NCBI GenBank assembly: GCA_003144275.1
Contig: NJBF01000058.1
Coordinates: forward strand, 1-15,228
DNA length: 15,228 bases
DNA from: Candidatus Heimdallarchaeota archaeon B3_Heim
Lineage (GTDB): Archaea > Asgardarchaeota > Heimdallarchaeia > Hodarchaeales > Hodarchaeaceae
Reading direction: 5' to 3'
Positions 1,316-14,974 of this stretch are shown piece by piece. How positions within the stretch are numbered: the stretch's first letter is position 1; each line of letters opens with the position of its first letter. The position numbers and the translations under genes are program-made. The notes under the pieces were generated by a model that was given only the letters and a program-made list of their open reading frames with translations, was not told the origin of the DNA and ran no database searches.

Positions 1316-3226
1316 TTAAAGCATAATAAAAAGTATTGCGAGTATAGCTGGGATGATCAATGATACAATTGGCCCATATTTCACTAGATTGGCAAAAATA
1401 TTTGTCTTTTTTGATTCAGAGAGTCTGTTTTTAGAATAATTAATATCTGTATAGGTTCCTTCTTTGCAGTATTTGAGGAAGACTTTTCTTACTTTTTCAA
1501 GGTGTTTTATTTCTTCTTTAGTTGTCATAACTTCAAATAAAATTCCTCTGGCCCTTCTAATTACTAAAAATAAGGATACAAAAGTAGAAACTATTAGTAA
1601 GATGAGGGTGGCAGATGAAAAATCCATGCTAAACTTCTTCTTAATGGATTCCATAAAATAACCAGTAGAGGTAGGAGTTCCATTCGTAGACGTGAATGGA
1701 TCGTGAAAATCCTCCTCAGAAATCCAATCAAAGTTTTTGAATAGAATCATTAATCCTGAAAAAACAAGAAAGGGATTAATGATAGCAGAAAGATCCATAA
1801 AAAACCTAATTAAAGACTCTACCCAAGGAGGTAGTACAAAAAAAGATTGTATAGTATTAATTAATTCCTGAACAAAATAACCAACTTCTGGTGGAATTAG
1901 AGCTAACAAGTTGGGTAAAACAATATCAAAAAACCACGGAAAAACAATTGGAGCCGTAAAGGCAATAGATAAACTGACTGTTTGGAAAAAAGTCCTTAAC
2001 AAGAAAAATAACACTCTTTTTGAAAAATGCTTTTCTTTCACATTAAGATTATTGCTTTCATTATTACTTTTAAGATCATCTTTTGATTGTTCTTGTACAA
2101 TTTCTTTCTCCTTGATATGATTCCAGTCAAGTCCTCTTTTATAATTTGAAATGGGGTTAAGGTAAGCGAGTTTAGCTAAAAAAAGTTTGTTTCCTGTATA
2201 TGGTTCTGTGAATCCCTTTTTTTTTCCCAATTTTCTCTTCCAAATTTCTGTATAAGATAACCACGGGGTAGGTACTCGAACAGTAAGATGATTAGGCTTA
2301 GTAATAAAGGTTTCAGGTAAATATCCCATGATTTCACCATCAACCTGATATAAACATTTCTTTTTTGGAGAATCCACATGAATGGACCCCCCCTCAAACG
2401 TTTCAACACTGCTATGGGTGAGATGATTACCCTCATAAATGGTAGAAAAAAATCTCACGAGGGTGAGTCGACGCATTTTTCGCACGGTAGTGGCAGAGAA
2501 TTTACCATCGGTTACTTCTGCATCAGGACAGATATGCATTCCACCTCCATATCGTTTTCCATTACCTATGGCCAACAACATTCTTCGTCCCTCTATCGTC
2601 TGTTCTCCATCTATGCGAATTAATAGATCGTAAGGCTTGAATTTGGCCAGAGTTTTTCCAAGAGCTAATTGATAACTTCTTGACCTTAAAAATCTTAGCG
2701 ATCCTTTATTTTCCCGATTTGCTACTTCTGCATCAAATCCCATGGAAGCTACTCCACAAAAGTAGCGCTCTGCTGTTTCACAGTACCCTACATCGAAAGT
2801 TTTATTTTGACCTTCAACTAGGCATTGTATGGCAGCTTCTAAATCTCCTTCTGGTATCCCGTAGGCAGTAGCTGCGTCTCCAGTCCCAACAGGAATTACA
2901 GAAAAAATTCCTGTCTTATCTGCTTTTAAAATACCATTTAGTACCTCATTTGCTGTTCCATCCCCTCCTACGGAGCAAATTATCTTGTAGCCCTCATTAA
3001 CTCGGGTTCTTGCGATTTCAATTGCATGTTGAGGAGCCGAAGTAAATTCAAAATCATATTCCAAATTGTAATTGTCTATTAATGGCTTAATTTGATCCTC
3101 CCAAATCGTTTTCACGCGTCCTCCAGCAGCGACAGGATTAATTACTAGAAAAACCTCTTTCTTTTTTGATTTAACCCTGTCAATTTCTTGTGTTACTAGG
3201 TCAGAGGGAGTTGTATCAGGAGTCAT
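1316..3226 (-). CDS. Diacylglycerol/lipid kinase family (DAGK/YegS/BmrU-like) domain, aa ~22-320, fused to an unknown multi-pass membrane domain, aa ~405-636
   Basis: INPVAAGG, VGGDGTANEVLNG, GMGFDA-like ASMGFDAEVA, GNGKRYGGG and QVDGE motifs. C-terminal third has about 4 hydrophobic segments. The fusion may be a frameshift artefact (see findings). Confidence 0.85.
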   Translation of the reverse strand: MTPDTTPSDLVTQEIDRVKSKKKEVFLVINPVAAGGRVKTIWEDQIKPLIDNYNLEYDFEFTSAPQHAIEIARTRVNEGYKIICSVGGDGTANEVLNGILKADKTGIFSVIPVGTGDAATAYGIPEGDLEAAIQCLVEGQNKTFDVGYCETAERYFCGVASMGFDAEVANRENKGSLRFLRSRSYQLALGKTLAKFKPYDLLIRIDGEQTIEGRRMLLAIGNGKRYGGGMHICPDAEVTDGKFSATTVRKMRRLTLVRFFSTIYEGNHLTHSSVETFEGGSIHVDSPKKKCLYQVDGEIMGYLPETFITKPNHLTVRVPTPWLSYTEIWKRKLGKKKGFTEPYTGNKLFLAKLAYLNPISNYKRGLDWNHIKEKEIVQEQSKDDLKSNNESNNLNVKEKHFSKRVLFFLLRTFFQTVSLSIAFTAPIVFPWFFDIVLPNLLALIPPEVGYFVQELINTIQSFFVLPPWVESLIRFFMDLSAIINPFLVFSGLMILFKNFDWISEEDFHDPFTSTNGTPTSTGYFMESIKKKFSMDFSSATLILLIVSTFVSLFLVIRRARGILFEVMTTKEEIKHLEKVRKVFLKYCKEGTYTDINYSKNRLSESKKTNIFANLVKYGPIVSLIIPAILAILFIML

Positions 3227-3425
3227 GTTCCATCAATTCTGAAAAGTAAAAGAGTGTTTATTTAAAAATTCTATCTTTCTTCCGCAGTTTTGACTACACC
3301 GTAATAATTTCTTTTTAATAATAAAATTTATTGAATTAATTGCCCTTCCTAGATTTATTATTAGCTTAAAGTCCAATCCCATCGGAATATTAATTAACAT
3401 CTTTTTACTTACTTTAGACAATTTC

Positions 3426-3437
3426 AAATATAAAAAA
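3426..3437 (+). promoter_or_regulatory. Putative archaeal TATA box for the membrane-protein gene
   Basis: AAATATAAAAAA about 22-33 nt upstream of ATG 3459, the spacing expected for a leaderless or short-leader archaeal transcript. Confidence 0.45.
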
Positions 3438-3458
3438 ATCAGTAATAGAGTGTTTAAA

Positions 3459-4076
3459 ATGTCAAGTGAAGAAAAATCTTCGGAAAGAAGTAGCAAAGTA
3501 TTTTGGAGAGATCTGGCAGTTAGATATTGGGTTTATGTAGTGATATTTGGAGTGATCGGAATTGGGGCTATTATCGGATTCATTCTAACATTGGATTGGT
3601 ACATCAACACTTCACCAGTTGGTGGTAAAGGGACATGGACATTCAATCAATTTTCAATGGGAACTGGATTAGAATTCGCTATCTTCCTCTTTCTATATAT
3701 GTTGGTAATTGTTGGAGTGCCAACATTAGCCGCAGCGGGAATCGTGACAGGTTTACTTTGGTTTGTAATCTTTGATACAGAACTAAAAGAAGAAATTAAA
3801 TTACGAAACAAGAAAGATGAAGAACGCAGGAAAAAGTTCGGAAAAACAAGCGAAGGTGGCGGAATTTTCGGTTTTTTAATGTTTGTAGGTGTGTGTATAT
3901 ATATCACCCTTGACGGACATTGGATGACTGAATTTGGTAGCCTGAACTTTAGGTATTTTGTCGATGCATGGATCGCTGTCTTCCTATGGGTCTTGGTCAT
4001 TTTCTGCATCGGAGGAGGATTAGGAATTATCTGGTTTGTTAAAAAATATGAACCTAGTGCTAACCAGGCATCCTAA
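3459..4076 (+). CDS. Uncharacterised archaeal multi-pass membrane protein
   Basis: About 205 aa with 4 hydrophobic segments and a charged central loop (KEEIKLRNKKDEERRKK). ATG 3459 preferred over GTG 3450 given the TATA spacing. Confidence 0.8.
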   Translation: MSSEEKSSERSSKVFWRDLAVRYWVYVVIFGVIGIGAIIGFILTLDWYINTSPVGGKGTWTFNQFSMGTGLEFAIFLFLYMLVIVGVPTLAAAGIVTGLLWFVIFDTELKEEIKLRNKKDEERRKKFGKTSEGGGIFGFLMFVGVCIYITLDGHWMTEFGSLNFRYFVDAWIAVFLWVLVIFCIGGGLGIIWFVKKYEPSANQAS

Positions 4077-4081
4077 AATCC

Positions 4082-4098
4082 TTTTTCTCTTTTTTTTA
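4082..4098 (+). terminator. Oligo-T tract, putative archaeal terminator
   Basis: TTTTTCTCTTTTTTTTA directly after stop 4076. Confidence 0.5.
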
Positions 4099-4139
4099 TC
4101 ATGTCAAATAAGCAGTATCACCACCATTGAGGTGAAAGC

Positions 4140-4238
4140 TTACTCTCCAGTGGAAGTCACTTCCAGGTAGAGTTCCCGATATGTCAAGCGAGAGTTTGCT
4201 AATAGTTTTTGCTGAATTAGTAAGTCAATTTTATCCAT
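4140..4238 (-). pseudogene. Truncated Lrp/AsnC-type HTH regulator (N-terminal remnant)
   Basis: ATG at 4238 reads MDKIDLLIQQKLLANSRLTYREL then YLEVTSTGE*. The first 23 aa fit the Lrp/AsnC start pattern (MDxxDxxIxxxLxxNxRxxyxEL) and stop before the recognition helix. GTAGGAG at 4254-4260 and TTTTTTAAAA at 4261-4270 lie upstream. Confidence 0.7.
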
Positions 4239-4307
4239 AATCCTTACGTAAATCTCCTACTTTTAAAAAATTTATGTATAATTCAGACATTGCTTGTTGA
4301 TTAACGA

Positions 4308-4616
4308 TCACGTCGATTGCCATCTTTTTAGGGTCGGTAGGAGAGATCTTAGATAACTTCTTGCTTCATCTATGGTAATATTAAGATTTGCTACCGTAGT
4401 GGGTCTATTTTTCTCTATCATTTCCACGCTCATTTTTTCGATCATTTCTTTCATTGTAAATTCTTCAGTAAATTTACCTTCTTGATAACACACTTCGCAA
4501 TAATCATCACTTATCGATCCATCTGCTTCTGATCCTTTATCAGTCGCATCCAGAGAACAAGCGCAACTCTGGCAAAGAGGTTCCTCCGAAATGATTTTTT
4601 TATCTAATCCATCCAT
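4308..4616 (-). CDS. Putative zinc ribbon domain protein (Zn_ribbon_2-like)
   Basis: CQSC...G(S)EADGS.SDDYCxxCYQxGxFT...TMxEMIE...LPTLKRW, the characteristic family pattern. Confidence 0.88.
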   Translation of the reverse strand: MDGLDKKIISEEPLCQSCACSLDATDKGSEADGSISDDYCEVCYQEGKFTEEFTMKEMIEKMSVEMIEKNRPTTVANLNITIDEARSYLRSLLPTLKRWQST

Positions 4617-4736
4617 TTAGCTGTACAACTCGTTGAATATCAAAAAACCTGTAAATCTGCCCTGGTTAAGTATTTCCTAATTTCCCAAAGAAATTCTTAT
4701 TATTAGATCGTTTTTTTCTTATCTATTTTTGCCTTC

Positions 4737-5417
4737 TTATACAGATTTGGAAGCAATTGTAGACGAATTAAATCCTTTATGTATAAGCCATACTGCTAGA
4801 ACTACTTCATTCACGATTATTGGGATAGCCAAAATGGCTGTCGATAGCGGATCAAAGACGAACATACTTAAAGGGACTCGTGTTAGCAACAATGTGGCTC
4901 CAATAAGACCCCAGACTGATAACCATCGAGGAAGGAGTTTTGATTGGTACAACAAATAATAAAACATCAGAGCAGCCAGGCAATAGGGAATGTTTTCCAG
5001 AACACTGACCCAATCAGATAATGCTATTAATAAAGTGCCTGAAGTTTGAAAATAGGAAGCGACTGGAGCTTCTGCGGTTACATATTCCCGACTCAATGTC
5101 AAAAGTAAGAGCGGACTGATTGCCATAATAGCATCGCTAAAGCCCTCAAAAATCCTGGCACCAACGTACCCAAGAGCTAAACTTTCATTATGCTTTTTAA
5201 AGATTGGAAACATCATGATTGGAATGCTAACAACTGAAGCGGTTAAAACTAACATCAGAAGCACTCCTATCAGCACATTGTTTTCATTTGTAGAAAAAGC
5301 AACAAGATAATCAGGTGCAATTGGAGAGCCTAAAAATACACCACTTAGCAGAGACGAACCCAATGCAGTTAGAAATAATACTCCCACAATTCGAGCTGTT
5401 CTTTTCTCTGAATTCGT
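4737..5417 (-). CDS. DUF4386 family membrane protein; start extended to an ACG at 5417
   Basis: About 6 TM segments with GYVGARIFE and LLPRWLSVWGLIG motifs. Frame is open 10 codons above the GTG at 5387 (ACG-NSEKRTARI-VGVLF), matching the family-type N-terminus. AGGAGG lies 8 nt upstream of the ACG. Confidence 0.82.
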   Translation of the reverse strand, partial: TNSEKRTARIVGVLFLTALGSSLLSGVFLGSPIAPDYLVAFSTNENNVLIGVLLMLVLTASVVSIPIMMFPIFKKHNESLALGYVGARIFEGFSDAIMAISPLLLLTLSREYVTAEAPVASYFQTSGTLLIALSDWVSVLENIPYCLAALMFYYLLYQSKLLPRWLSVWGLIGATLLLTRVPLSMFVFDPLSTAILAIPIIVNEVVLAVWLIHKGFNSSTIASKSV

Positions 5418-5420
5418 TGA

Positions 5421-6377
5421 TTATTCCTCCTGTGTCACGGTGATAACTACATGGCCCTTCTTACGACCTGTTTCAACATACCTGTGAGCTTCAACAATTT
5501 GTTCTAAGGGAAAATGTTTGTCAATGACTGCTTTTATTGATCCAGCCTCAATAAGTTCCTTCATCTCCTTGACTAAAGGTGGAATATGATCAGTACTCGA
5601 CCCACCAGAATTCTTATCAGAGTTAAGATAGATTCCTGTCTTCTTTAGAGCCCTTTTAGCTTGAGACTTTTCAAGCCTGTCTACTGCATCAAAGATAACA
5701 TCATAAGTCTCACTACCTTCCCAAAAATTCTCTTTCTTGTAATCGATGACCTTATCGGCTCCTAGAGATTTTACCATTTCTAAATTAGTCGTACTGCAAA
5801 CTCCAGTGACTTCTGCACCAAAGGATTTGCAAAGTTGGACTGCATAAGTACCAATACTCCCAGAAGCGCCATTTATAAGAATTTTTTGTCCTGGTTTGAT
5901 ATTTGCTTGTTTAAGAATATATAATGCGGTAACGCCCCCAGTAGTAGCTCCAGCGGCAGCCTCTTCAAAGGTCATATTTGAAGGTTTGATTGCGATCGCC
6001 CCATCTTCAGGCATGCACACATACTCGGCATAGGATGAGGCAGTCCAAAAACTACCTGCCATAACTGGGTCTCCTTTCTTATATAGTGTTACATCTTTGC
6101 CTACAGCTTCAACTACTCCCGAGAGCTCCATCCCGAGTGCAACTTTTTTTGGTTTTCTAATACCTATTATCAGTCGTGCTAAGAGCCATTGTGCGCGAGG
6201 AACATCGAATTTTCGCATACGCACATCCCCTACATGGACTGTTGTGAAATAATTTTTGATGAGTACTTCATTGTCCTTAGGAACTGGTTTGTCTACCTCT
6301 TTGAGCTGGAGAACTTCTGGGCCTCCGTATTTTGTACAAATAACTGCTCGCATTTTCTTATTATCCATTTTTTTCAC
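5421..6377 (-). CDS. NAD(P)-dependent oxidoreductase, MDR superfamily (zinc-independent, quinone oxidoreductase-like)
   Basis: [36 protein letters not shown] (Rossmann), [23 protein letters not shown]. No structural Zn Cys cluster. Alternative starts are ATG 6368 and ATG 6353. Confidence 0.92.
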
Positions 6378-7324: not shown

Positions 7325-9646
7325 TTAGACAGGAACTTTCTGTACCACATCAAATTTTGAAAATCTTATACAGATTCTTTCAACGGGGATCCCGGGAATG
7401 ATTATTTGGCCAGGAACTATTTCAACCGTATCTGTTTCTGAGGTGGATTCCTGATCTCCATTCCTATCATTATCATTATTTGTGGCAATTACTTCTATCA
7501 TGTGTACGCCAACTATCGCGGGAACTGGGATCTCATAGGAGTAAGAGGAAACGCCATTTAAAACCTGATAAACAATTTCCCCCCCATCAACAAGTATTAG
7601 GACTTCACCAATTCCAGATCCCAGCTCTTCCACATTTACATGCCAATAACCAGGATCAACATCGGTACCTAACCCGAAATATTGAATAGCAATCGCGGGT
7701 GCTAGTGTATAATCGTCGATAATTGAGATGGAGCCTTGAGCGGAAGAAATAAATCCATTGTTGTCTTCGGCTGTGATTTCTAATTGATAATCGTCAGGAG
7801 TATTGGTGAGATGTAAACTATCAAAAATAATTTCATTGTCAGAATATGTCGCTATGACTTCACCATTTAGTGTAACCGTTGCATGTGAAATTCCACTTTC
7901 ATCAGTGATCTGCCAGTCAAAGCTGACCCCTCCTAGCGCATCCTCGTCAGAGATCGTTATACTAGACGGAGAAATATAAATTACTGGAGGATCTACATCT
8001 GACTGACTAACCTCAACCGTAGCTATTTCTGAAGCGGATTGTTGGTCTCCATCCCAATCAGTATCATTATTTGTGACAAAAACCTCTATCGTATGAACCA
8101 TCACTGATCCGGGGACTTCAATTTCGAGATATGAAATGGATTGTTGACCATTCAGATTCTGATCATGAATAACTATGTCTCCATTGATTAAAATTTGCAC
8201 TTCATCTATGCCTGATTCTACATCTCCAATTAGAACATACCACCAACCAGGATCAACATCAGTTCCTGAACCAATATACTGAATTACGATTGATGGTGCC
8301 GTTGTATCATCATCAACAATTGAAATGGTGCTTTGAGCTGAAGAAACTAAACCAATATTGTCTACGGCGGTGATTTCTACTAGATAATCCCCAGGAGTAT
8401 TTGCTAACAGATAGGAATCTGAAATACTTTCATCGATATTATATGATGCTATGACTTCCCCATTTACCTTGACTGTTGCTTGTAAAATTCCACTTTCATC
8501 GGTGATCTCCCAGTCAAGTAAGAGTCCTCCTATCGCATTCCCATCAGAGATTGTTACAGTAGGTATTGAAATAAAAATTACTGGAGGATCTACATCGGAA
8601 TGACTAATTTCAACCGTATCTGCTTCTGAAGTGGATTCCTGATCGCCAACCCAATCATTATCATTATTTGTTGCAGTAACTTCTAAAGAATAAATTCCTG
8701 ATGATACAGGAACATAAATTTCGAGATATAAGATAGATTGTTGACCACCTAAGTTTTCATGAAGGTATTCATATTCATTGATTAAAATAACAACTTCCTC
8801 GATGCCAGAATCGAGATCCTCTATGTAGATATCCCACCAACCAGGATCAAAATGAGTTCCTGAACCGACATAATAAATGTCAATTGTTGGTGCAGTTGTA
8901 TCATCGTCGGTAATTGAAATAGTGCTTTGAGCGGAAGAAACTAAACCATTGTTGTCTACGGCGGTGATTTCTACTAAATAATCCCCAGGAGTATTCGCTA
9001 AAAGATAAGAATCTGAAATGCTATCAATGTCAGTATAAGAGGCTATGACTTCACAATTTAACTCGACTGTTGCGTCTGAAATTCCACTAGCATCGGTGAT
9101 CTCCCAGTCAAGTACGAACCCTCCTATCGCATCCCCGTCAGTAATTATTTGGTCAGGCGTTAAAATTATAACTGGAGGATCTATATCTGGAGTAGTTAAC
9201 GCTTCTATCTTAGCCAAGATGTTGTCACAATCAACACCAAATTCTGCTTGTAACTCCTCGTTGATTACCCAAGATGTAGTTAATTTAGGTTTAATATCTT
9301 GGACCATTTTATCGTAAGCGGCTTCAGAATTATTCTTTGCGACTTGTCTCTTTAGGACATTTAATTTAATAAGCATTACAAATTTACGTATTGAGGTGGG
9401 TCGTTTCCATGCACTACCTGGGCTATCCTGAATTTTCTCCTTTAATGCATTGATTACTTCAATTATACTTACCAATGCTGGATCATCAACACTATCTGAA
9501 GGTTTTCTTCTGCCTTCATGTCTAGGGTAGTTACTTAACGAAGAAATTGAGGGGACAAGTAACTGAAGGCCTAATATCACAATAATTGAGATCTTTCCAA
9601 TTTTTACTCTCTTCAAATCATTCACTTCTCTCAAGAAATGTTTCAT
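7325..9646 (-). CDS. Secreted acidic surface protein: signal/anchor, helical N-domain, three tandem two-module (Ig-like) repeats
   Basis: Basic n-region plus hydrophobic stretch (KRVKIGKISIIVILGLQLLVPSISS). Highly acidic, beta-strand-patterned repeats. Alternative start TTG 9616 follows GAGAAGTGA. Confidence 0.85.
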   Translation of the reverse strand: MKHFLREVNDLKRVKIGKISIIVILGLQLLVPSISSLSNYPRHEGRRKPSDSVDDPALVSIIEVINALKEKIQDSPGSAWKRPTSIRKFVMLIKLNVLKRQVAKNNSEAAYDKMVQDIKPKLTTSWVINEELQAEFGVDCDNILAKIEALTTPDIDPPVIILTPDQIITDGDAIGGFVLDWEITDASGISDATVELNCEVIASYTDIDSISDSYLLANTPGDYLVEITAVDNNGLVSSAQSTISITDDDTTAPTIDIYYVGSGTHFDPGWWDIYIEDLDSGIEEVVILINEYEYLHENLGGQQSILYLEIYVPVSSGIYSLEVTATNNDNDWVGDQESTSEADTVEISHSDVDPPVIFISIPTVTISDGNAIGGLLLDWEITDESGILQATVKVNGEVIASYNIDESISDSYLLANTPGDYLVEITAVDNIGLVSSAQSTISIVDDDTTAPSIVIQYIGSGTDVDPGWWYVLIGDVESGIDEVQILINGDIVIHDQNLNGQQSISYLEIEVPGSVMVHTIEVFVTNNDTDWDGDQQSASEIATVEVSQSDVDPPVIYISPSSITISDEDALGGVSFDWQITDESGISHATVTLNGEVIATYSDNEIIFDSLHLTNTPDDYQLEITAEDNNGFISSAQGSISIIDDYTLAPAIAIQYFGLGTDVDPGYWHVNVEELGSGIGEVLILVDGGEIVYQVLNGVSSYSYEIPVPAIVGVHMIEVIATNNDNDRNGDQESTSETDTVEIVPGQIIIPGIPVERICIRFSKFDVVQKVPV
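7418..9187 (-). repeat. Three intragenic tandem repeats, periods 591 and 597 nt
   Basis: Units begin at D(I/V)DPPVI codons at 9187, 8596 and 7999. Each contains LDWEITDxSGI, TPxDYxxEITAxDNxG, DDxTxAP, GxGTxxDPGxW and NNDxDxxGDQ. Confidence 0.95.
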
Positions 9647-9899: not shown

Positions 9900-10757
9900 C
9901 TAACTTAGAGCAAGAAAATTCACTATTAACGAAATGGTGATCAGTAATAACATACCCATGGTAAGTTTTCTGGTTTTATGGACATACTCAATGTCATTAT
10001 GCTGGTTTATTAGCTTAAAAATGGGAACTAACACTAGCAATATAATAACATCTACTCCCCAGAAGAGAAGTGGAAATGAAACCCCTGTGATGAATAAAAT
10101 TCCATGATATAAGATGAAACTTAGTAAATAAAGACTAATCACTACCCAAGCGGCCTTTCTGGTGCCAAACACGACAGGGATGGTATTTTTCTCATTTTTT
10201 CCGTCCCCTTCCACGTCTGCTATGTCTTTATGCATTTCAAACGTGACTACCACGATGAATATTAACAGGAAGAATAATAGAATCTCAATTGATATCTTTT
10301 CTGGATTGGTCGCAAATACACCAACAAGTAGTGCGGATGAAATCCCGAATGAGGTCAGTATATTTTTCACTAAGAGTATATTTTTTAATTGCCACGAATA
10401 CAGCACAGATAAAATAGCTACACTTGCGGAAAGGAGAAATGAATAAAGGCTTAAGTAGAAAGCTAGTATTAACCCAAATATTGTTTCTAAACTGAATAGG
10501 ACTTTAGCTTCATTCACTGAAATTCCTTTTCTAGGAATGGGTCGATTAGGCTTTTCAAAAATATCAATCTCGCGATCCATAATATCATTTATTGTATTAG
10601 TACTGGCAGAGATGAAAAAACCTACCAAAAAACCAAAAATTAGACCCAACCTCAATGTTGGGCCTGTGGATGCGATAATCATCCCAAAAATGACGACTAG
10701 GCCCACTATTATGGAAGCTTTGAGGCGTGCTAAATCTGTTATTGCTCTTAATTCCAT
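9900..10757 (-). CDS. UbiA-family prenyltransferase, DGGGP synthase-like
   Basis: NDIMDREID...KPNRPIP (NDxxDxxxD) and HKDIADVEGD (KDxxDxxGD) Asp-rich motifs, about 8 TM segments. Exact substrate uncertain. Confidence 0.9.
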   Translation of the reverse strand: MELRAITDLARLKASIIVGLVVIFGMIIASTGPTLRLGLIFGFLVGFFISASTNTINDIMDREIDIFEKPNRPIPRKGISVNEAKVLFSLETIFGLILAFYLSLYSFLLSASVAILSVLYSWQLKNILLVKNILTSFGISSALLVGVFATNPEKISIEILLFFLLIFIVVVTFEMHKDIADVEGDGKNEKNTIPVVFGTRKAAWVVISLYLLSFILYHGILFITGVSFPLLFWGVDVIILLVLVPIFKLINQHNDIEYVHKTRKLTMGMLLLITISLIVNFLALS

Positions 10758-11006
10758 CCAAATTCACTGTACAGAAAAATATCCTTCAATTGTCGAGGAA
10801 AATTTGCTTTATTTTAATCAATTGATATCCATTTAACGTATATTTGATCGTAAGAACTATAAAAAGCGCGATTCGGATTGTTTTTTCACTCTCTTTTCTA
10901 ACCTGGAGTAGATTTTCTTGACATTCACTAAACAGGACTGAAATTTTGTGGGATTAACGTAATTGCAATAGAGAGAAAAATAATGACGGAAAGAAATATC
11001 CACTCA

Positions 11007-12512
11007 CTACATTTCTCGACCGAGGATTACAAACACAATAAATCGTAGTAAGAATATACCAAGACCCATGAGTATGATTATGAGGGTATAGTTTCTTTTA
11101 ACCATTTGTCTCCTTTCCGACATTTCCAGTTGATTGCTTGATTCAAAGTCAAATCTCACAAAACCTGGTGATCTTACTCCCTGTAACAGCTGATAATAAC
11201 TTATTATTATCAGTGCTAAGAGGATTATCCCCACTCCCGCTCCTAGAGGATTAAAGAGATCCGCAACAAAAGCTATTATTCCAATGAGGATATATTTTTG
11301 TGGGATTTCCTTTTCCTGTTGATTTTCAACACTTAAACCATGTATGTGCAATACTAATTTACTAAAACCTATGTACAATCCTAGGAAGATTCCACCATAG
11401 ATGATTGCTTGAGTGATCCATGATAATGGGTCAAAAAATAAGGAGTCCATTTGTCGGGGTGGGGAAAAGAAGTATCCGATTCCCCCGACGGGTATATATT
11501 GCTCGGTGATTACATCCAACCTGAATTGACCTAGAAAAAAAGCTATCACAGATCTGGAATTTTCACGACCGCTAGCGTTCCATATGAGTAGACTGGTAAA
11601 TCGGATCACCGCAAGGACGGTTGTTGTAAGCACAAGTGGAATTACTGGGTTACGTATTTTTCTAGCTGGCTCTAACGATTCTGGTTGGATCGTACTTGTT
11701 TTTATAATTTCCAAAAACACGACCAAGAAGAAAAATATTCCAGCAAGACAAACAGAGAGGATTGATAACGATGGTAAGTTCAATTTATGGGCTGGATTCG
11801 TACTATACCGAAAAAATAAGTTTCCAAATGCAGCAATTGGTCCTTCTTCTCCAACCCAGTAAAGAAAGGCCAAAACTATTCCTCGTCCCGAGGTAACACC
11901 ATTAGGCCCTTCTAAAATATTGTTTGGAGCGAACAGTCCTTGAAAGATCCGTAATCCAACGCCTCCTGCAATAAACATCGATATTCCTGAACCTAATCCC
12001 CATCCCCTGTTAACAATTTCGTCTAAAAGAACAATCAGAACTCCCACAATTGTCAGTTGTATGATGATAAATGATTGAGTGGTAATATCCAGACCCGATC
12101 CAAATATTCCTGAAAATGTTATTAGTAGAGCCATGACTATCGTAATGAGGAAACTAAGAAGGATCCTCAGTATATTATATCGATTTCGCTCTTCTTGATT
12201 TGCTATATCCATTTTAATAATGTTCATTCGGATTAACGTATACATTGTTAATCCTGCTATTAGTACGGGCAAAATCCCCAGTTCGGCAAGTGATCCATGC
12301 AATGAGGCACTAATCATTCGGATGAATGCAAAGGGATCACCTTCTCCTAAGTTTACGCCGAGTAGGGGAACCGCAGTGAATAATTGATACAGAAAAAATA
12401 TTGCTATAGTTACCACACATTTCGTAGTAAAATCTAATTTTTCCACTGGTCTTTTTATTTCTATTTTGTTTGAAAATCTAGATTTAATCCCCTCTTCATC
12501 TCTCGTCGTCAT
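11007..12512 (-). CDS. secY: Divergent SecY/Sec61alpha paralog with truncated cytoplasmic loops and an extra C-terminal TM helix
   Basis: IEIKRP.....F..K, DPF..IRMISAS..GSLAELGILP, LDEIVNRGWGLGSGISMFIAGG, GGIGYFFSPP, ADLFNPLGAGVGIILL. Ten SecY-like TMs plus one more. No ribosomal-protein operon context. Confidence 0.9.
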   Translation of the reverse strand: MTTRDEEGIKSRFSNKIEIKRPVEKLDFTTKCVVTIAIFFLYQLFTAVPLLGVNLGEGDPFAFIRMISASLHGSLAELGILPVLIAGLTMYTLIRMNIIKMDIANQEERNRYNILRILLSFLITIVMALLITFSGIFGSGLDITTQSFIIIQLTIVGVLIVLLDEIVNRGWGLGSGISMFIAGGVGLRIFQGLFAPNNILEGPNGVTSGRGIVLAFLYWVGEEGPIAAFGNLFFRYSTNPAHKLNLPSLSILSVCLAGIFFFLVVFLEIIKTSTIQPESLEPARKIRNPVIPLVLTTTVLAVIRFTSLLIWNASGRENSRSVIAFFLGQFRLDVITEQYIPVGGIGYFFSPPRQMDSLFFDPLSWITQAIIYGGIFLGLYIGFSKLVLHIHGLSVENQQEKEIPQKYILIGIIAFVADLFNPLGAGVGIILLALIIISYYQLLQGVRSPGFVRFDFESSNQLEMSERRQMVKRNYTLIIILMGLGIFLLRFIVFVILGREM

Positions 12513-12647
12513 ATCTTCTTCCTCATTTCCTCGTATTTTGTTGATAAATTCGTTTTGTTTCTGATCTGATGATCTGGGTTTAGAATTTTTGTTTGTTATT
12601 TTGTGATTTTTTCTAATCTACGATTCTAATCACACGGTTATCTGGTT

Positions 12648-12662
12648 TTTTATATATTTAAT
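12648..12662 (-). promoter_or_regulatory. Putative TATA box upstream of the SecY paralog
   Basis: Minus strand TTAAATATATAAAAA, about 135 nt upstream of ATG 12512. Confidence 0.4.
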
Positions 12663-12748
12663 AATTATGGTGCAAATTTTTGACAATAAAAGAGGAGAAA
12701 AGAGGGCATCATCTTCAGGGGGGAATCCTGTTAATAACAACTGATGAC

Positions 12749-13570
12749 TTAATTGAGATAATCTTTGTAACTAGTTGAAATTGATAAATCTCTCATTTGG
12801 TGTTCAATGACTTTGTGATTTTTTAAGATTTTAATATAATAAGAGATTAAGGCCTTGTGAATGCCTAAATTTGTGCACAAATCCTTTTGAGTGGTAATGG
12901 TTGGATTTTCATTTAGACATTGCAGTATTTCTAAGATGTGTTTATTTTGAATTAAGGAATATAGTAATTTTGCCTCGGTTGTCCATTGTTGCTTCAAATC
13001 AAAATGATGTTTTGATTTTCCTAATACGAGAGAATCTATCTCATCTTCTCGTTCTAATATCTGGATCCAATATTGTGCTGAACCCATAGCAATGTCGGCT
13101 GCTCGAGTGATCCCGCGTAAAGTAATTCCTGGAGTGTTCGTTATTGTCATCATAATTAATTCACGATTATTTCCCCCTTCTTTCCAATCTTGTGATGAAC
13201 GAACTAGTTTGTATAATTCATATGCCAACGGCCCCAATGTCATTGCTGTGAGACTAGATATTTGCTCAAATCGACCTTGCAGGCGTTCAATTAAAATTCT
13301 TGATTTCACAGATTGAATTACAGGGGATACTGTCATTTGGGGATGATTCATATCGTGAAGAAATTCTCTCACCTCCAACTGTTGATAGAGTCCACTGGTT
13401 ATGTCTATATTTGGAAACAATCCTGTCGCTGGGGAGTCCCTGTGTTGAGTAATGATATTGGTTGGACTTATTCCAAAGAAAGTAAAAATCGAGAGTGTAA
13501 GCAAAAGAATTGCAATTACTCCTCTACAATAACGCCAGTTTACCCTTTGCCGAATTATCAACGCCCTCAT
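12749..13570 (-). CDS. Tandem winged helix-turn-helix regulator (COG3398-like) with N-terminal TM/signal segment
   Basis: NRELIMMTITNTPGITLRGITRAADIAMGSAQYWIQILE (wHTH1) and ILEILQCLNENP...QKDLCTNLGIHKALISYYIKIL (wHTH2). Hydrophobic aa 18-34. Confidence 0.82.
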   Translation of the reverse strand: MRALIIRQRVNWRYCRGVIAILLLTLSIFTFFGISPTNIITQHRDSPATGLFPNIDITSGLYQQLEVREFLHDMNHPQMTVSPVIQSVKSRILIERLQGRFEQISSLTAMTLGPLAYELYKLVRSSQDWKEGGNNRELIMMTITNTPGITLRGITRAADIAMGSAQYWIQILEREDEIDSLVLGKSKHHFDLKQQWTTEAKLLYSLIQNKHILEILQCLNENPTITTQKDLCTNLGIHKALISYYIKILKNHKVIEHQMRDLSISTSYKDYLN

Positions 13571-13792
13571 AAGTTAACGGGTTTTTCCCCTTTTTATGCC
13601 TTTCTTCCTGATCGTTGATTGTCAAAAAATTGTATTACAGGTCTGATAAAATTAGTTACTTGGCGGAGGCTTTGTGTTGATGATTATACGGTATTCCCCA
13701 TCTGTAAAGTTGATTCTAGGATAGTGGAAAATCAAGAAAACGAATCATACGTTTGATCTTTCTCTCCTAACGGCCTCTTCCTCGCTTTCTCT

Positions 13793-14974
13793 TTATGTAT
13801 AAATTATGCATCCCTTTTCTTTCAGGAGAGTAAACCAGGATGGGATGGTTTTCAGTTGATTCCATCTCAAATCAAGTTTTTCAAGTTGGGGCAGGGAACC
13901 CATACTCGCTGGGAGGGAATGGAATCGGTTACCCCGTAAATCTATGTGAATTAGCTGATTTAAGCCTGACCAATCCTCTGGTAGTTTTTGGACCTTATTT
14001 ACCCGCAGATCAACCACTCTAAGTTCGTGAAGCTGATTGATAGTCTTTGGCAATTCTGTAATCTTATTCCCCTTCAGATACAGGTATTTTAATTTTCTAA
14101 GATTGCCTATACCACGGGGGAGTGTTTCAAGTTCATTATTTTGTGCGTGTAATTCTAATAAATTTTTGAGGTTCCCTAGTGTCTCTGGTAGAGTTTTTAT
14201 TTGGTTACCATACAATCTAAACTCAATTAAATTCGTAAGCTTCCCTATGCTCTCTGGTAATCTAGTAATTTTATTCTCGCTTATATTCAAATAGCGTAGA
14301 TTAGCTAATGTAGTAAGTGAGGGGGGAATCGATCGTAGATGACTATCGGCTACATACAAAAACTCCAAGGATTGTAACTGACTTATAGATTGAGGTATTT
14401 CTTCTAGTTTCCCATGGGCGATATCTAGGACTATTAGATCTTTTAAGTTACCTAACGATTTCGGTAACGTTGTATACGTATTTCCATCAAGATATAAATT
14501 GGTTAATCCCGTTAGGGTTCCAATCTTCTCACTTATTTCTTCTAATTGATTTCCTCCTCCTATATCTAATTCATTTAAATTTGTTAACCGCCATAACCCC
14601 TCAGGTAAGCTGGTTATTCGATTATTTCGCAATTTTAAATGTTTAAGGTTGGTTAGTCCACTTGTGCTCGCTGGGAGGCTTCTAAGTTGATTATCACTAG
14701 CAATTAGTTCTTCAAGTTCTTTCAGGTTCCCCAGAGTCTCGGGAAGCTCTGTAACCTTATTACTCGATATATTCAAATATTTCAAGTTACCTAACTTCAT
14801 AATACTCTCAGGTAATTGTGTGAAGTTACAGTGTTTGAGTGTTAGGCCAGTTACCTTTCCGTTTTCCTCATAAAATCCTACATCAACGCCAATGAGATCC
14901 TGGGGGGAAGCAACGTTCTTAAAGGGCTGATTTATGTGATCTCTTAGTTTCTCAATTATTTGACTAGGATTCAT
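13793..14974 (-). CDS. Stand-alone leucine-rich repeat protein (15 repeats of 23-24 aa)
   Basis: Repeats of LxxLxLxxNxLxxLPxxIxxLxx from aa 41 to about 385, with short N- and C-caps and no additional domain. Confidence 0.95.
   Translation of the reverse strand: MNPSQIIEKLRDHINQPFKNVASPQDLIGVDVGFYEENGKVTGLTLKHCNFTQLPESIMKLGNLKYLNISSNKVTELPETLGNLKELEELIASDNQLRSLPASTSGLTNLKHLKLRNNRITSLPEGLWRLTNLNELDIGGGNQLEEISEKIGTLTGLTNLYLDGNTYTTLPKSLGNLKDLIVLDIAHGKLEEIPQSISQLQSLEFLYVADSHLRSIPPSLTTLANLRYLNISENKITRLPESIGKLTNLIEFRLYGNQIKTLPETLGNLKNLLELHAQNNELETLPRGIGNLRKLKYLYLKGNKITELPKTINQLHELRVVDLRVNKVQKLPEDWSGLNQLIHIDLRGNRFHSLPASMGSLPQLEKLDLRWNQLKTIPSWFTLLKEKGCIIYT

Follow-up and report, generated by a model that had tools for sequence, protein, structure and literature searches.

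The 15,228-nt stretch analysed here (the window) is contig NJBF01000058.1 of Candidatus Heimdallarchaeota archaeon B3_Heim (contig C62 of genome G000 in our numbering), from a genome of 3.95 Mb that is 94% complete. Its reverse strand encodes P0001, a 501-residue paralog of the channel subunit SecY/Sec61α that has lost the two cytosolic loops of canonical SecY and ends in an extension related to SecE/Sec61γ. The gene and the protein elements relevant to the argument are as follows, with transmembrane helices denoted TM.

11007..12512, reverse strand: gene of the loop-less SecY paralog fused to SecE (‘SecY2::SecE2’, P0001, 501 aa), assigned from the open reading frame (ORF), PF00344, an AlphaFold2 (AF2) model and Foldseek.
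12303..12338, reverse strand: plug helix TM2a, residues 59–70 (DPFAFIRMISAS), matching Pfam Plug_translocon with 21.4 bits.
11637..11711, reverse strand: remnant of cytosolic loop 6/7, residues 268–292 (E268–P292, EIIKTSTIQPESLEPARKIRNPVIP), 7 aa shorter than in canonical SecY and with the YPIKLLYVSN motif gone.
11601..11603, reverse strand: codon of R304 in lateral-gate helix TM7, an arginine invariant in the clade where canonical SecY has tyrosine.
11301..11339, reverse strand: remnant of cytosolic loop 8/9, residues 392–404 (G392–P404, GLSVENQQEKEIP), with 28 aa deleted and the PGWRRS motif gone.
11010..11174, reverse strand: C-terminal extension, residues 447–501 (55 aa), assigned to SecE/Sec61γ by BLASTP, hidden Markov model (HMM) and hhalign comparisons with SecE.
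11148-11162, reverse strand: F(V/A)RFD motif in the cytosolic linker of the extension, with F and D invariant.
11010-11072, reverse strand: TM11, residues 481–501, within the extension.

P0001 is a divergent member of the SecY family. It matches PF00344 with 66.8 bits (cut-off 32.2) in a six-frame search of the genome, and hmmscan of the protein at E ≤ 0.01 lists the plug domain alone. Its scores lie below the cut-off of the NCBIfam SecY equivalog NF006341 (145.5 versus 300 bits) and that of TIGR00967 (75.9 versus 253.6). The AF2 model, computed with 86 homologues as input, has a predicted local distance difference test (pLDDT) score of 81.7 and a predicted template-modelling (pTM) score of 0.85; together with Foldseek it places P0001 in the 10-TM, two-halves SecY fold. 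The top Foldseek matches are Sec61α structures with TM-scores of 0.74–0.79, among them 7tm3 (E = 8.5e-21, TM-scores 0.74/0.79), and the model also superimposes on Methanocaldococcus jannaschii SecY (1rhz, 0.63/0.72); the Ssh1–ribosome structure 2ww9 is among the Foldseek matches. By sequence, the best match of known structure is eukaryotic Sec61α (126 bits), and the protein relatives of P0001 carry the label Hodarchaeales.

A canonical SecY of 511 residues is encoded elsewhere in the same genome (G000:C88:76039-77574, reverse strand; positions 10040-11575 of locus L053) and matches PF00344 with 216 bits; P0001 is 44% identical to it in pairwise alignment. This gene lies outside the ribosomal-protein (spc) cluster, flanked by a major facilitator superfamily (MFS) transporter gene and a divergently oriented 687-aa gene that gives no Pfam ribophorin match at E ≤ 0.01. 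Only one SecE and one Sec61β are present in the genome. The sole SecE/Sec61γ, 68 residues long, is also encoded on C88 and adjoins a Spt5/NusG-like gene. A search of the genome for SecA_DEAD returned nothing above the cut-off (best 17.5 versus 24.6 bits), and Sec62, also searched for in the genome, was not found.

Loop lengths, motifs and individual residues were compared in an alignment of 86 sequences, of which 13 are loop-less and 73 canonical. We know of no characterised SecY/Sec61 without loops 6/7 and 8/9, the docking site of every known partner that delivers or drives substrates, namely the ribosome, the signal recognition particle (SRP) receptor, SecA and Sec63. Against the canonical SecY of its own genome P0001 has one gap of 24 residues in loop 8/9 and one of 7 residues in loop 6/7, and about 26 loop 8/9 residues are missing relative to human Sec61α (query 402-409 against chain 394-427). 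Loop 8/9 measures 18 aa in all 13 loop-less proteins versus 46 aa in all 73 canonical ones, and its net charge is +0.4 versus +3.6; loop 6/7 is 22–24 aa long versus 28–30 aa. The motifs PG[WFY]RRS and Y[KR]G.RS.YPIKLLYVSN are gone from the loop-less proteins.

The core of the channel is retained. Plug residues D59, P60, R65 and S70 are conserved in the loop-less and canonical sets alike, the six pore-ring positions mapped through the alignment with human Sec61α (I80, L84, I177, I181, V294 and L431) are all aliphatic, and R65, E165 and W171 are invariant in the loop-less clade. A sequence-only reading of the window had claimed that both ribosome-binding loops are lost while the plug and a hydrophobic pore ring remain, and had inferred that the protein coexists with a canonical SecY. 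All of this is borne out: the two loop remnants lie exactly where that reading placed them, and neither the pairwise nor the 86-sequence alignment restores the loops. Its premise that canonical archaeal secY sits in the ribosomal-protein cluster fails here. The comparisons show that P0001, as far as its sequence can tell, keeps the channel core of plug and aliphatic pore ring without the canonical cytosolic docking loops.

The lateral gate has changed in character. At the positions of the canonical polar cluster (equivalent to human T86, Q127 and N300), the canonical proteins have T73, E66/Q5 and D61/N12 (residue followed by number of sequences), whereas the loop-less clade has I5/T5/L3, M5/G5/L3 and L4/V3/I3/T2/A1, so that the polar cluster is lost. 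The changes fixed specifically in the clade include G81L, Y304R, S432L and S434L; G81L, S432L and S434L are bulky or hydrophobic and adjoin pore-ring positions. These substitutions would suit a sealed, non-conducting SecY derivative that serves in the membrane as a scaffold, holdase or sensor, for example as a decoy for a SecY-targeting toxin, inhibitor or virus, as a partner controlling the neighbouring winged helix–turn–helix (wHTH) protein described below, or as a subunit pairing with canonical SecY. We consider such a derivative unlikely. The conserved plug, the six aliphatic ring positions and the invariance of R65, E165 and W171 would be costly to maintain in a mere scaffold, and toxin, immunity or viral genes do not recur in the neighbourhoods. 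A dedicated SecE is also kept, either fused or adjacent, which indicates that a clamp-dependent channel architecture still matters.

The C-terminal extension accounts for this dedicated SecE. P0001 ends in ...LMGLGIFLLRFIVFVILGREM and the SecE of the genome in ...ILGFIAFVIRFIIFVLLGREL, with a shared ending of ...LGRE[LM]. In BLASTP the two align over the last 21 residues, up to the final residue of each protein (11/21 identical, 18/21 similar, E = 2e-6). When an HMM of 12 extensions was run against 31,050 six-frame ORFs of the genome, SecE was the best non-self match (E = 0.0011), and profile–profile comparison of the extension with SecE by hhalign gave E = 2.8e-5 at a probability of 74%. Other Pfam families gave nothing meaningful on the extension. 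The AF2 model contains a single long helix of 32 residues (467–498) in this region, and a helix that follows TM10 would run from the cytosol to the outside, in the same orientation as SecE. Together these comparisons show the extension of P0001 to be, by homology, a fused SecE/Sec61γ-derived linker plus a predicted TM helix. The canonical SecE segment AKKPDRSEV (K-P-D/hinge) has no counterpart in the linker, which carries F(V/A)RFD at this place. We know of no natural fusion of SecE to SecY, and a literature search found no description of archaeal or Asgard accessory SecY paralogs, loop-less SecY or natural SecY–SecE fusions. The fusion in cis is the most family-defining of three features that lie outside the earlier claim about the loops, the others being a dedicated promoter and a wHTH neighbour.

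The linker motif bears on the idea that P0001 is still coupled to the ribosome through new surfaces such as F(V/A)RFD, as a substrate-specialised co-translational translocon comparable to yeast Ssh1. The conservation of this new cytosolic motif and the roughly four basic residues that remain in the loop 6/7 remnants are consistent with this idea, as is the co-translational action of the known eukaryotic Sec61 paralogs Ssh1 and Sec61A2. We nevertheless judge continued coupling improbable. All three canonical ribosome contacts (loop 6/7, loop 8/9 and the SecE N-terminal helix) are altered together, the net charge of loop 8/9 drops from +3.6 to +0.4, and F(V/A)RFD is acidic and aromatic rather than basic. 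The loop 6/7 remnant, moreover, has a ratio of nonsynonymous to synonymous substitution rates (dN/dS) of about 1.0 (241–300 window, G000 versus G013).

Searches for homologues covered 41 related genomes, a collection of 5.8 billion proteins and 1.84 billion cluster representatives. They yielded 13 distinct loop-less proteins of 495–506 aa with intact ORFs, 33–81% identical to P0001, every one of which shares its deletions and carries the C-terminal extension as well. The fused form occurs in 3 of 22 genomes of the genus (G000, G013 and G018, the last with three copies) and an unfused form in another 2. Among the 1.84 billion representatives there are only three full-length clusters at 50% identity, plus the distant, C-terminally extended P0137. 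The 13 loop-less proteins are monophyletic in a 43-sequence tree (support 100/98) and in a 51-sequence tree (support 100), which answers the question posed by the earlier reading of whether loop-less copies form a conserved clade.

The unfused proteins, from G016 and G001, are divergent SecY2 proteins whose loops are degenerate rather than deleted, and each gene is preceded, at a distance of about 45 nt, by a separate secE2. Together with P0092 they form the sister group of the fused clade (joint support 99). This arrangement suggests that a SecY2/SecE2 pair evolved and became a single chain in one branch. An approximately unbiased (AU) test of an independent origin of the G016 and G001 paralogs gave p = 0.55, so that such an origin is not rejected, nor is it favoured. 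What speaks for a single origin of fused and unfused SecY2 is that they have the promoter and the wHTH neighbour in common and form a clade with a support of 99. The unfused gene of G001 (L045, G001:C6, about 4065-5555, reverse strand; 73% identical to that of G016) contains one in-frame TAG, which could reflect a pseudogene, a sequencing error or recoding.

The two trees differ in where the paralogs attach. In the 43-sequence tree the paralog clade is nested in a subclade of G000, G013, G018, G003 and G020 (96/100), whereas in the 51-sequence tree it is sister to all canonical copies of the genus (support 84); a recent duplication within that subclade was not retained. Tree evidence places the origin of the SecY2 clade inside the family or genus and later than the separation from family f2 (support 98–99).

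SecY duplication is recurrent in the genus. Many of its species (G009, G017, G014, G011, G007, G012 and G002; loci L040, L023, L041, L039, L044, L042 and L046) encode a second SecY that is canonical-like and retains both loops, with branch lengths of 0.02–0.35, and G009_b, G017_C19 and G014_C229 form a supported clade among these copies. In G015 the SecY reading frame is in two pieces about 540 kb apart (C1:1156365-1157159 and C1:619311-619985), which cover the N-terminal part (1–261) and the C-terminal part (188–394). A second, very divergent SecY in G005 (C312) branches outside the genus; the G005 genome is about 7% contaminated.

The loop-less paralog evolves fast yet under purifying selection, as the substitution rates show. 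The dN/dS ratio is 0.40 between the G000 and G013 paralogs (bootstrap 0.29–0.57), 0.28 between P0007 and P0009 (bootstrap 0.18–0.48), and 0.28, 0.30 and 0.25 in three deeper pairs, versus 0.02–0.04 for canonical SecY, where the closest pair gives about 0.2. Branch lengths are 0.65–5 for the paralogs versus 0.01–0.05, and the paralog evolves more than 10 times faster than the canonical protein; such very fast evolution is also what a non-conducting derivative might display. The most constrained region spans TM5, the external hinge and TM6 (residues 151–240), with dN/dS of 0.04–0.13 and 82–90% identity to the canonical copy. Recent gene conversion was considered as the source of this identity and rejected, since third-position identity over residues 161–260 is only 0.45–0.6, which points to constraint instead.

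A decaying or selfish duplicate that serves the cell in no way, being either a redundant copy on its way to loss or carried along by a mobile element, would fit the relaxed constraint and long branches, the patchy presence in the genus, the variable genomic context and the in-frame TAG of G001. This explanation is highly improbable in our view. The 13 intact ORFs have near-constant length across their range of identities, dN/dS is significantly below 1 in five pairs, and the clade has invariant residues of its own. Promoter, Shine-Dalgarno sequence and regulator are conserved, and no integrase or viral genes were seen nearby. The deletions are accordingly not the decay of one copy, which the sequence-only reading had named as an outcome that would overturn it; dN/dS lies at 0.25–0.40 with bootstrap upper bounds ≤0.57.

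One segment departs from the rest of the gene. Over residues ~320–410 (window 11285-11556), which span the external loop 7/8 hairpin, TM8 and the loop 8/9 remnant, G000 differs from the otherwise 80%-identical G013-type allele with dN of ~0.3 and dS >1, versus dS of 0.07–0.4 outside the segment. In one metagenome contig this segment is swapped for 273 unlike letters. The pattern resembles what recombination among alleles of the paralog would leave, or else a hypervariable cassette. A dS above 1 between close strains suggests recombination or diversifying pressure and, like the three copies in the G018 genome, would be in keeping with a non-conducting decoy or sensor.

Upstream of the paralog gene lie the following features.

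12520..12524, reverse strand: Shine-Dalgarno-like GAGGA, 8 nt before the ATG, conserved in relatives.
12655..12662, reverse strand: TATA-like box ATTAAATA, ~146 nt upstream of the ATG, conserved in the aligned upstream regions.
12668..12686, reverse strand: operator-like element TTGTCAAA-N3-TTGCACCA, directly upstream of the TATA-like box.
12749..13570, reverse strand: upstream neighbour of 273 aa with an N-terminal TM segment and two winged-helix domains (Pfam HTH_HVO_0163_N and HTH_24/MarR).

The operator-like element and the TATA-like box together occupy a region 146–175 nt upstream of the paralog ATG. The element has a single match in the 3.95-Mb genome at ≤1 mismatch, precedes 9 of 11 SecY2 loci (the unfused secE2–secY2 operons included), and is exact in 4 paralog loci, with 1–5 mismatches in L097, L057, L058, G016 and G001. 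A 1-nt indel within it between G000 and G013 indicates that it is non-coding. The TATA-like box has the consensus A(T/A)TAAA(T/A/G) and would be expected to act as a promoter. The sequence GAGGAA before the ATG is kept in G000, G013, L054, L057 and L097. The long leader matched no known RNA family when 10700-13800 was scanned with Rfam. Next to the SecY paralog, 8 of 11 loci encode a homologue of the wHTH protein (207–273 aa), in most cases with an N-terminal TM segment. Conservation of both the element and this neighbour suggests that the wHTH protein may be the regulator and the element its operator. A complex prediction of the paralog with the wHTH protein, run without controls, scored 0.00, which speaks neither for nor against binding.

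ABC and FtsX genes occur near three SecY2 loci. Such exporters beside wHTH genes, as in resistance modules, are a further feature that would be compatible with a non-conducting derivative. Elsewhere in the genome (G000:C82:95059-98570), a wHTH paralog 41% identical to the neighbour is divergently oriented from genes for an ABC ATPase and a 608-aa FtsX-type permease, and the intergenic region contains two TTGTACYA boxes that resemble the half-site upstream of the SecY paralogs. In G016 (L048, G016:C8, 914-3085, reverse strand) a paralog of the oligosaccharyltransferase STT3/AglB lies directly downstream of the secE2–secY2–wHTH cluster; it was not found in the syntenic stretch of G001. At one G018 locus (L052, G018:C277), which has neither wHTH gene nor operator, a gene for a 580-aa tetratricopeptide repeat (TPR) protein (2241-3983, forward strand) ends 33 nt before the fused paralog and is probably co-transcribed with it. 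A DUF6259 gene adjoins this paralog as well as that of P0005 (L057).

Only one sediment metatranscriptome run matched the window, with two 151-nt contigs that are 97–98% identical to the wHTH gene (13139-13413) and give a weak hint of transcription of this gene or of one closely related to it; neither contig covers the paralog, about whose expression they are uninformative. The DNA runs contain related strains at 90–99% identity. Within the window, the gene immediately downstream of the SecY paralog encodes a UbiA prenyltransferase (9900-10757), in the source locus only. Further away are a DAGK/YegS-type lipid kinase fused to a long C-terminal multi-TM region (1316-3226, reverse strand) and a 773-aa surface protein made of three ~190-aa repeats (7325-9646, reverse strand).

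Taken together, these data provide good support for a functional SecY paralog that is unable to dock ribosomes in the canonical way and coexists with canonical SecY. We slightly favour the more specific interpretation of P0001 as an accessory SecYE channel that consists of a single chain, is expressed conditionally and is unable to dock ribosomes. In such a channel TM11 would do in cis what SecE does in trans and clamp the two halves of SecY, making the unit independent of the housekeeping SecE. The wHTH protein would bind the TTGTCAAA-N3-TTGYACCA element and induce the gene in response to a particular state of the envelope or membrane. The channel would then take substrates without a docked ribosome, either for post-translational export or, more likely, for the insertion of hydrophobic segments, and would work in parallel with the canonical co-translational SecYE-β. 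Insertion or handling of hydrophobic segments seems likelier than bulk secretion because the gate and the surroundings of the pore have become more hydrophobic. The sequence-only reading had gone as far as a ribosome-independent or repurposed translocon; the loss of canonical ribosome docking and the coexistence with canonical SecY stand, and for the specific role the scheme above is a proposal. The strongest form of the interpretation, in which Hodarchaeales evolved a self-contained, ribosome-independent, single-chain Sec61α–γ translocon under its own transcriptional switch, is tentative and we regard it as rather doubtful.

Several observations weigh against the accessory-channel interpretation. 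The Pfam SecE family PF00584 has no match at E ≤ 10 in six extensions, the match to SecE is short (21–30 residues) and hydrophobic, and TM11 is modelled with moderate confidence (pLDDT 64–74); its placement at the SecE site would follow from homology and topology. Selection is clearly relaxed relative to canonical SecY, with dN/dS of 0.8–1.0 in several windows, and only a few species carry the family, which is therefore not a general Asgard feature. By the positive-inside rule, the N-terminal TM segment of the neighbour would put its winged-helix domains outside the cell, which does not fit DNA binding. Archaea have, to our knowledge, no motor for post-translational translocation, which leaves the driving force unexplained, and a sealed, non-conducting protein could account just as well for the increased hydrophobicity of gate and pore.

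Compared with the canonical archaeal SecYE-β and eukaryotic Sec61αγβ complexes, P0001 has the same fold, plug, six aliphatic pore-ring positions and two 5-TM halves, and likewise has an associated SecE-type C-terminal TM helix. It differs in its truncated loops, lost basic motifs and hydrophobic gate, in carrying SecE covalently fused as TM11, and in its own promoter, through which it may be separately regulated.

The bacterial SecA2/SecY2 and plastid SCY2/SECA2 systems likewise include a second, divergent SecY beside the housekeeping one, lineage-restricted and with a locus of its own, and the glycosylation enzyme at the G016 locus adds a further likeness to the bacterial system. The working partner of bacterial SecY2 is an ATPase, for which the cytosolic loops are the docking site. 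In the Hodarchaeales paralog these docking loops are gone, and the carrier genome has no SecA or SecA2 match above the cut-off, in agreement with the earlier remark that no SecA2 was visible. Descent is not shared either: the paralog clade branches inside Hodarchaeales SecY and arose independently, so that bacterial SecY2 is an analogy only, as had been proposed.

Yeast Ssh1 and mammalian Sec61A2 are likewise lineage-specific duplicates of Sec61α beside an essential copy. They keep the ribosome-binding loops, act co-translationally and are not fused to Sec61γ, and Ssh1 has its own β-subunit paralog. The eukaryotic Sec61–Sec62/63/71/72 complex, in which the Sec61 channel is used without a docked ribosome, is a working analogy only. 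The TPR gene upstream of the G018 C277 paralog recalls Sec72, at that one locus. The eukaryotic complex retains loops 6/7 and 8/9, to which Sec63 binds, and its Sec62 has no counterpart found in the carrier genome.

Hodarchaeales are the archaea placed closest to eukaryotes, and their translocon is the closest prokaryotic relative of Sec61. A loop-less family that is maintained by selection in this group, with its SecE clamp built in and its gate altered, poses the question of how substrates are delivered to, and cross, a Sec channel without the known docking partners, and with it that of post-translational translocation in archaea, for which no motor is known. The unique operator-like element and the neighbouring wHTH gene offer a testable one-gene regulon, and a compact single-chain SecYE could help structural and reconstitution work. 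If the interpretation holds, P0001 would be the first archaeal accessory Sec channel and could serve as a natural model of Sec61 uncoupled from the ribosome, in post-translational insertion or export or in the extraction of membrane proteins.

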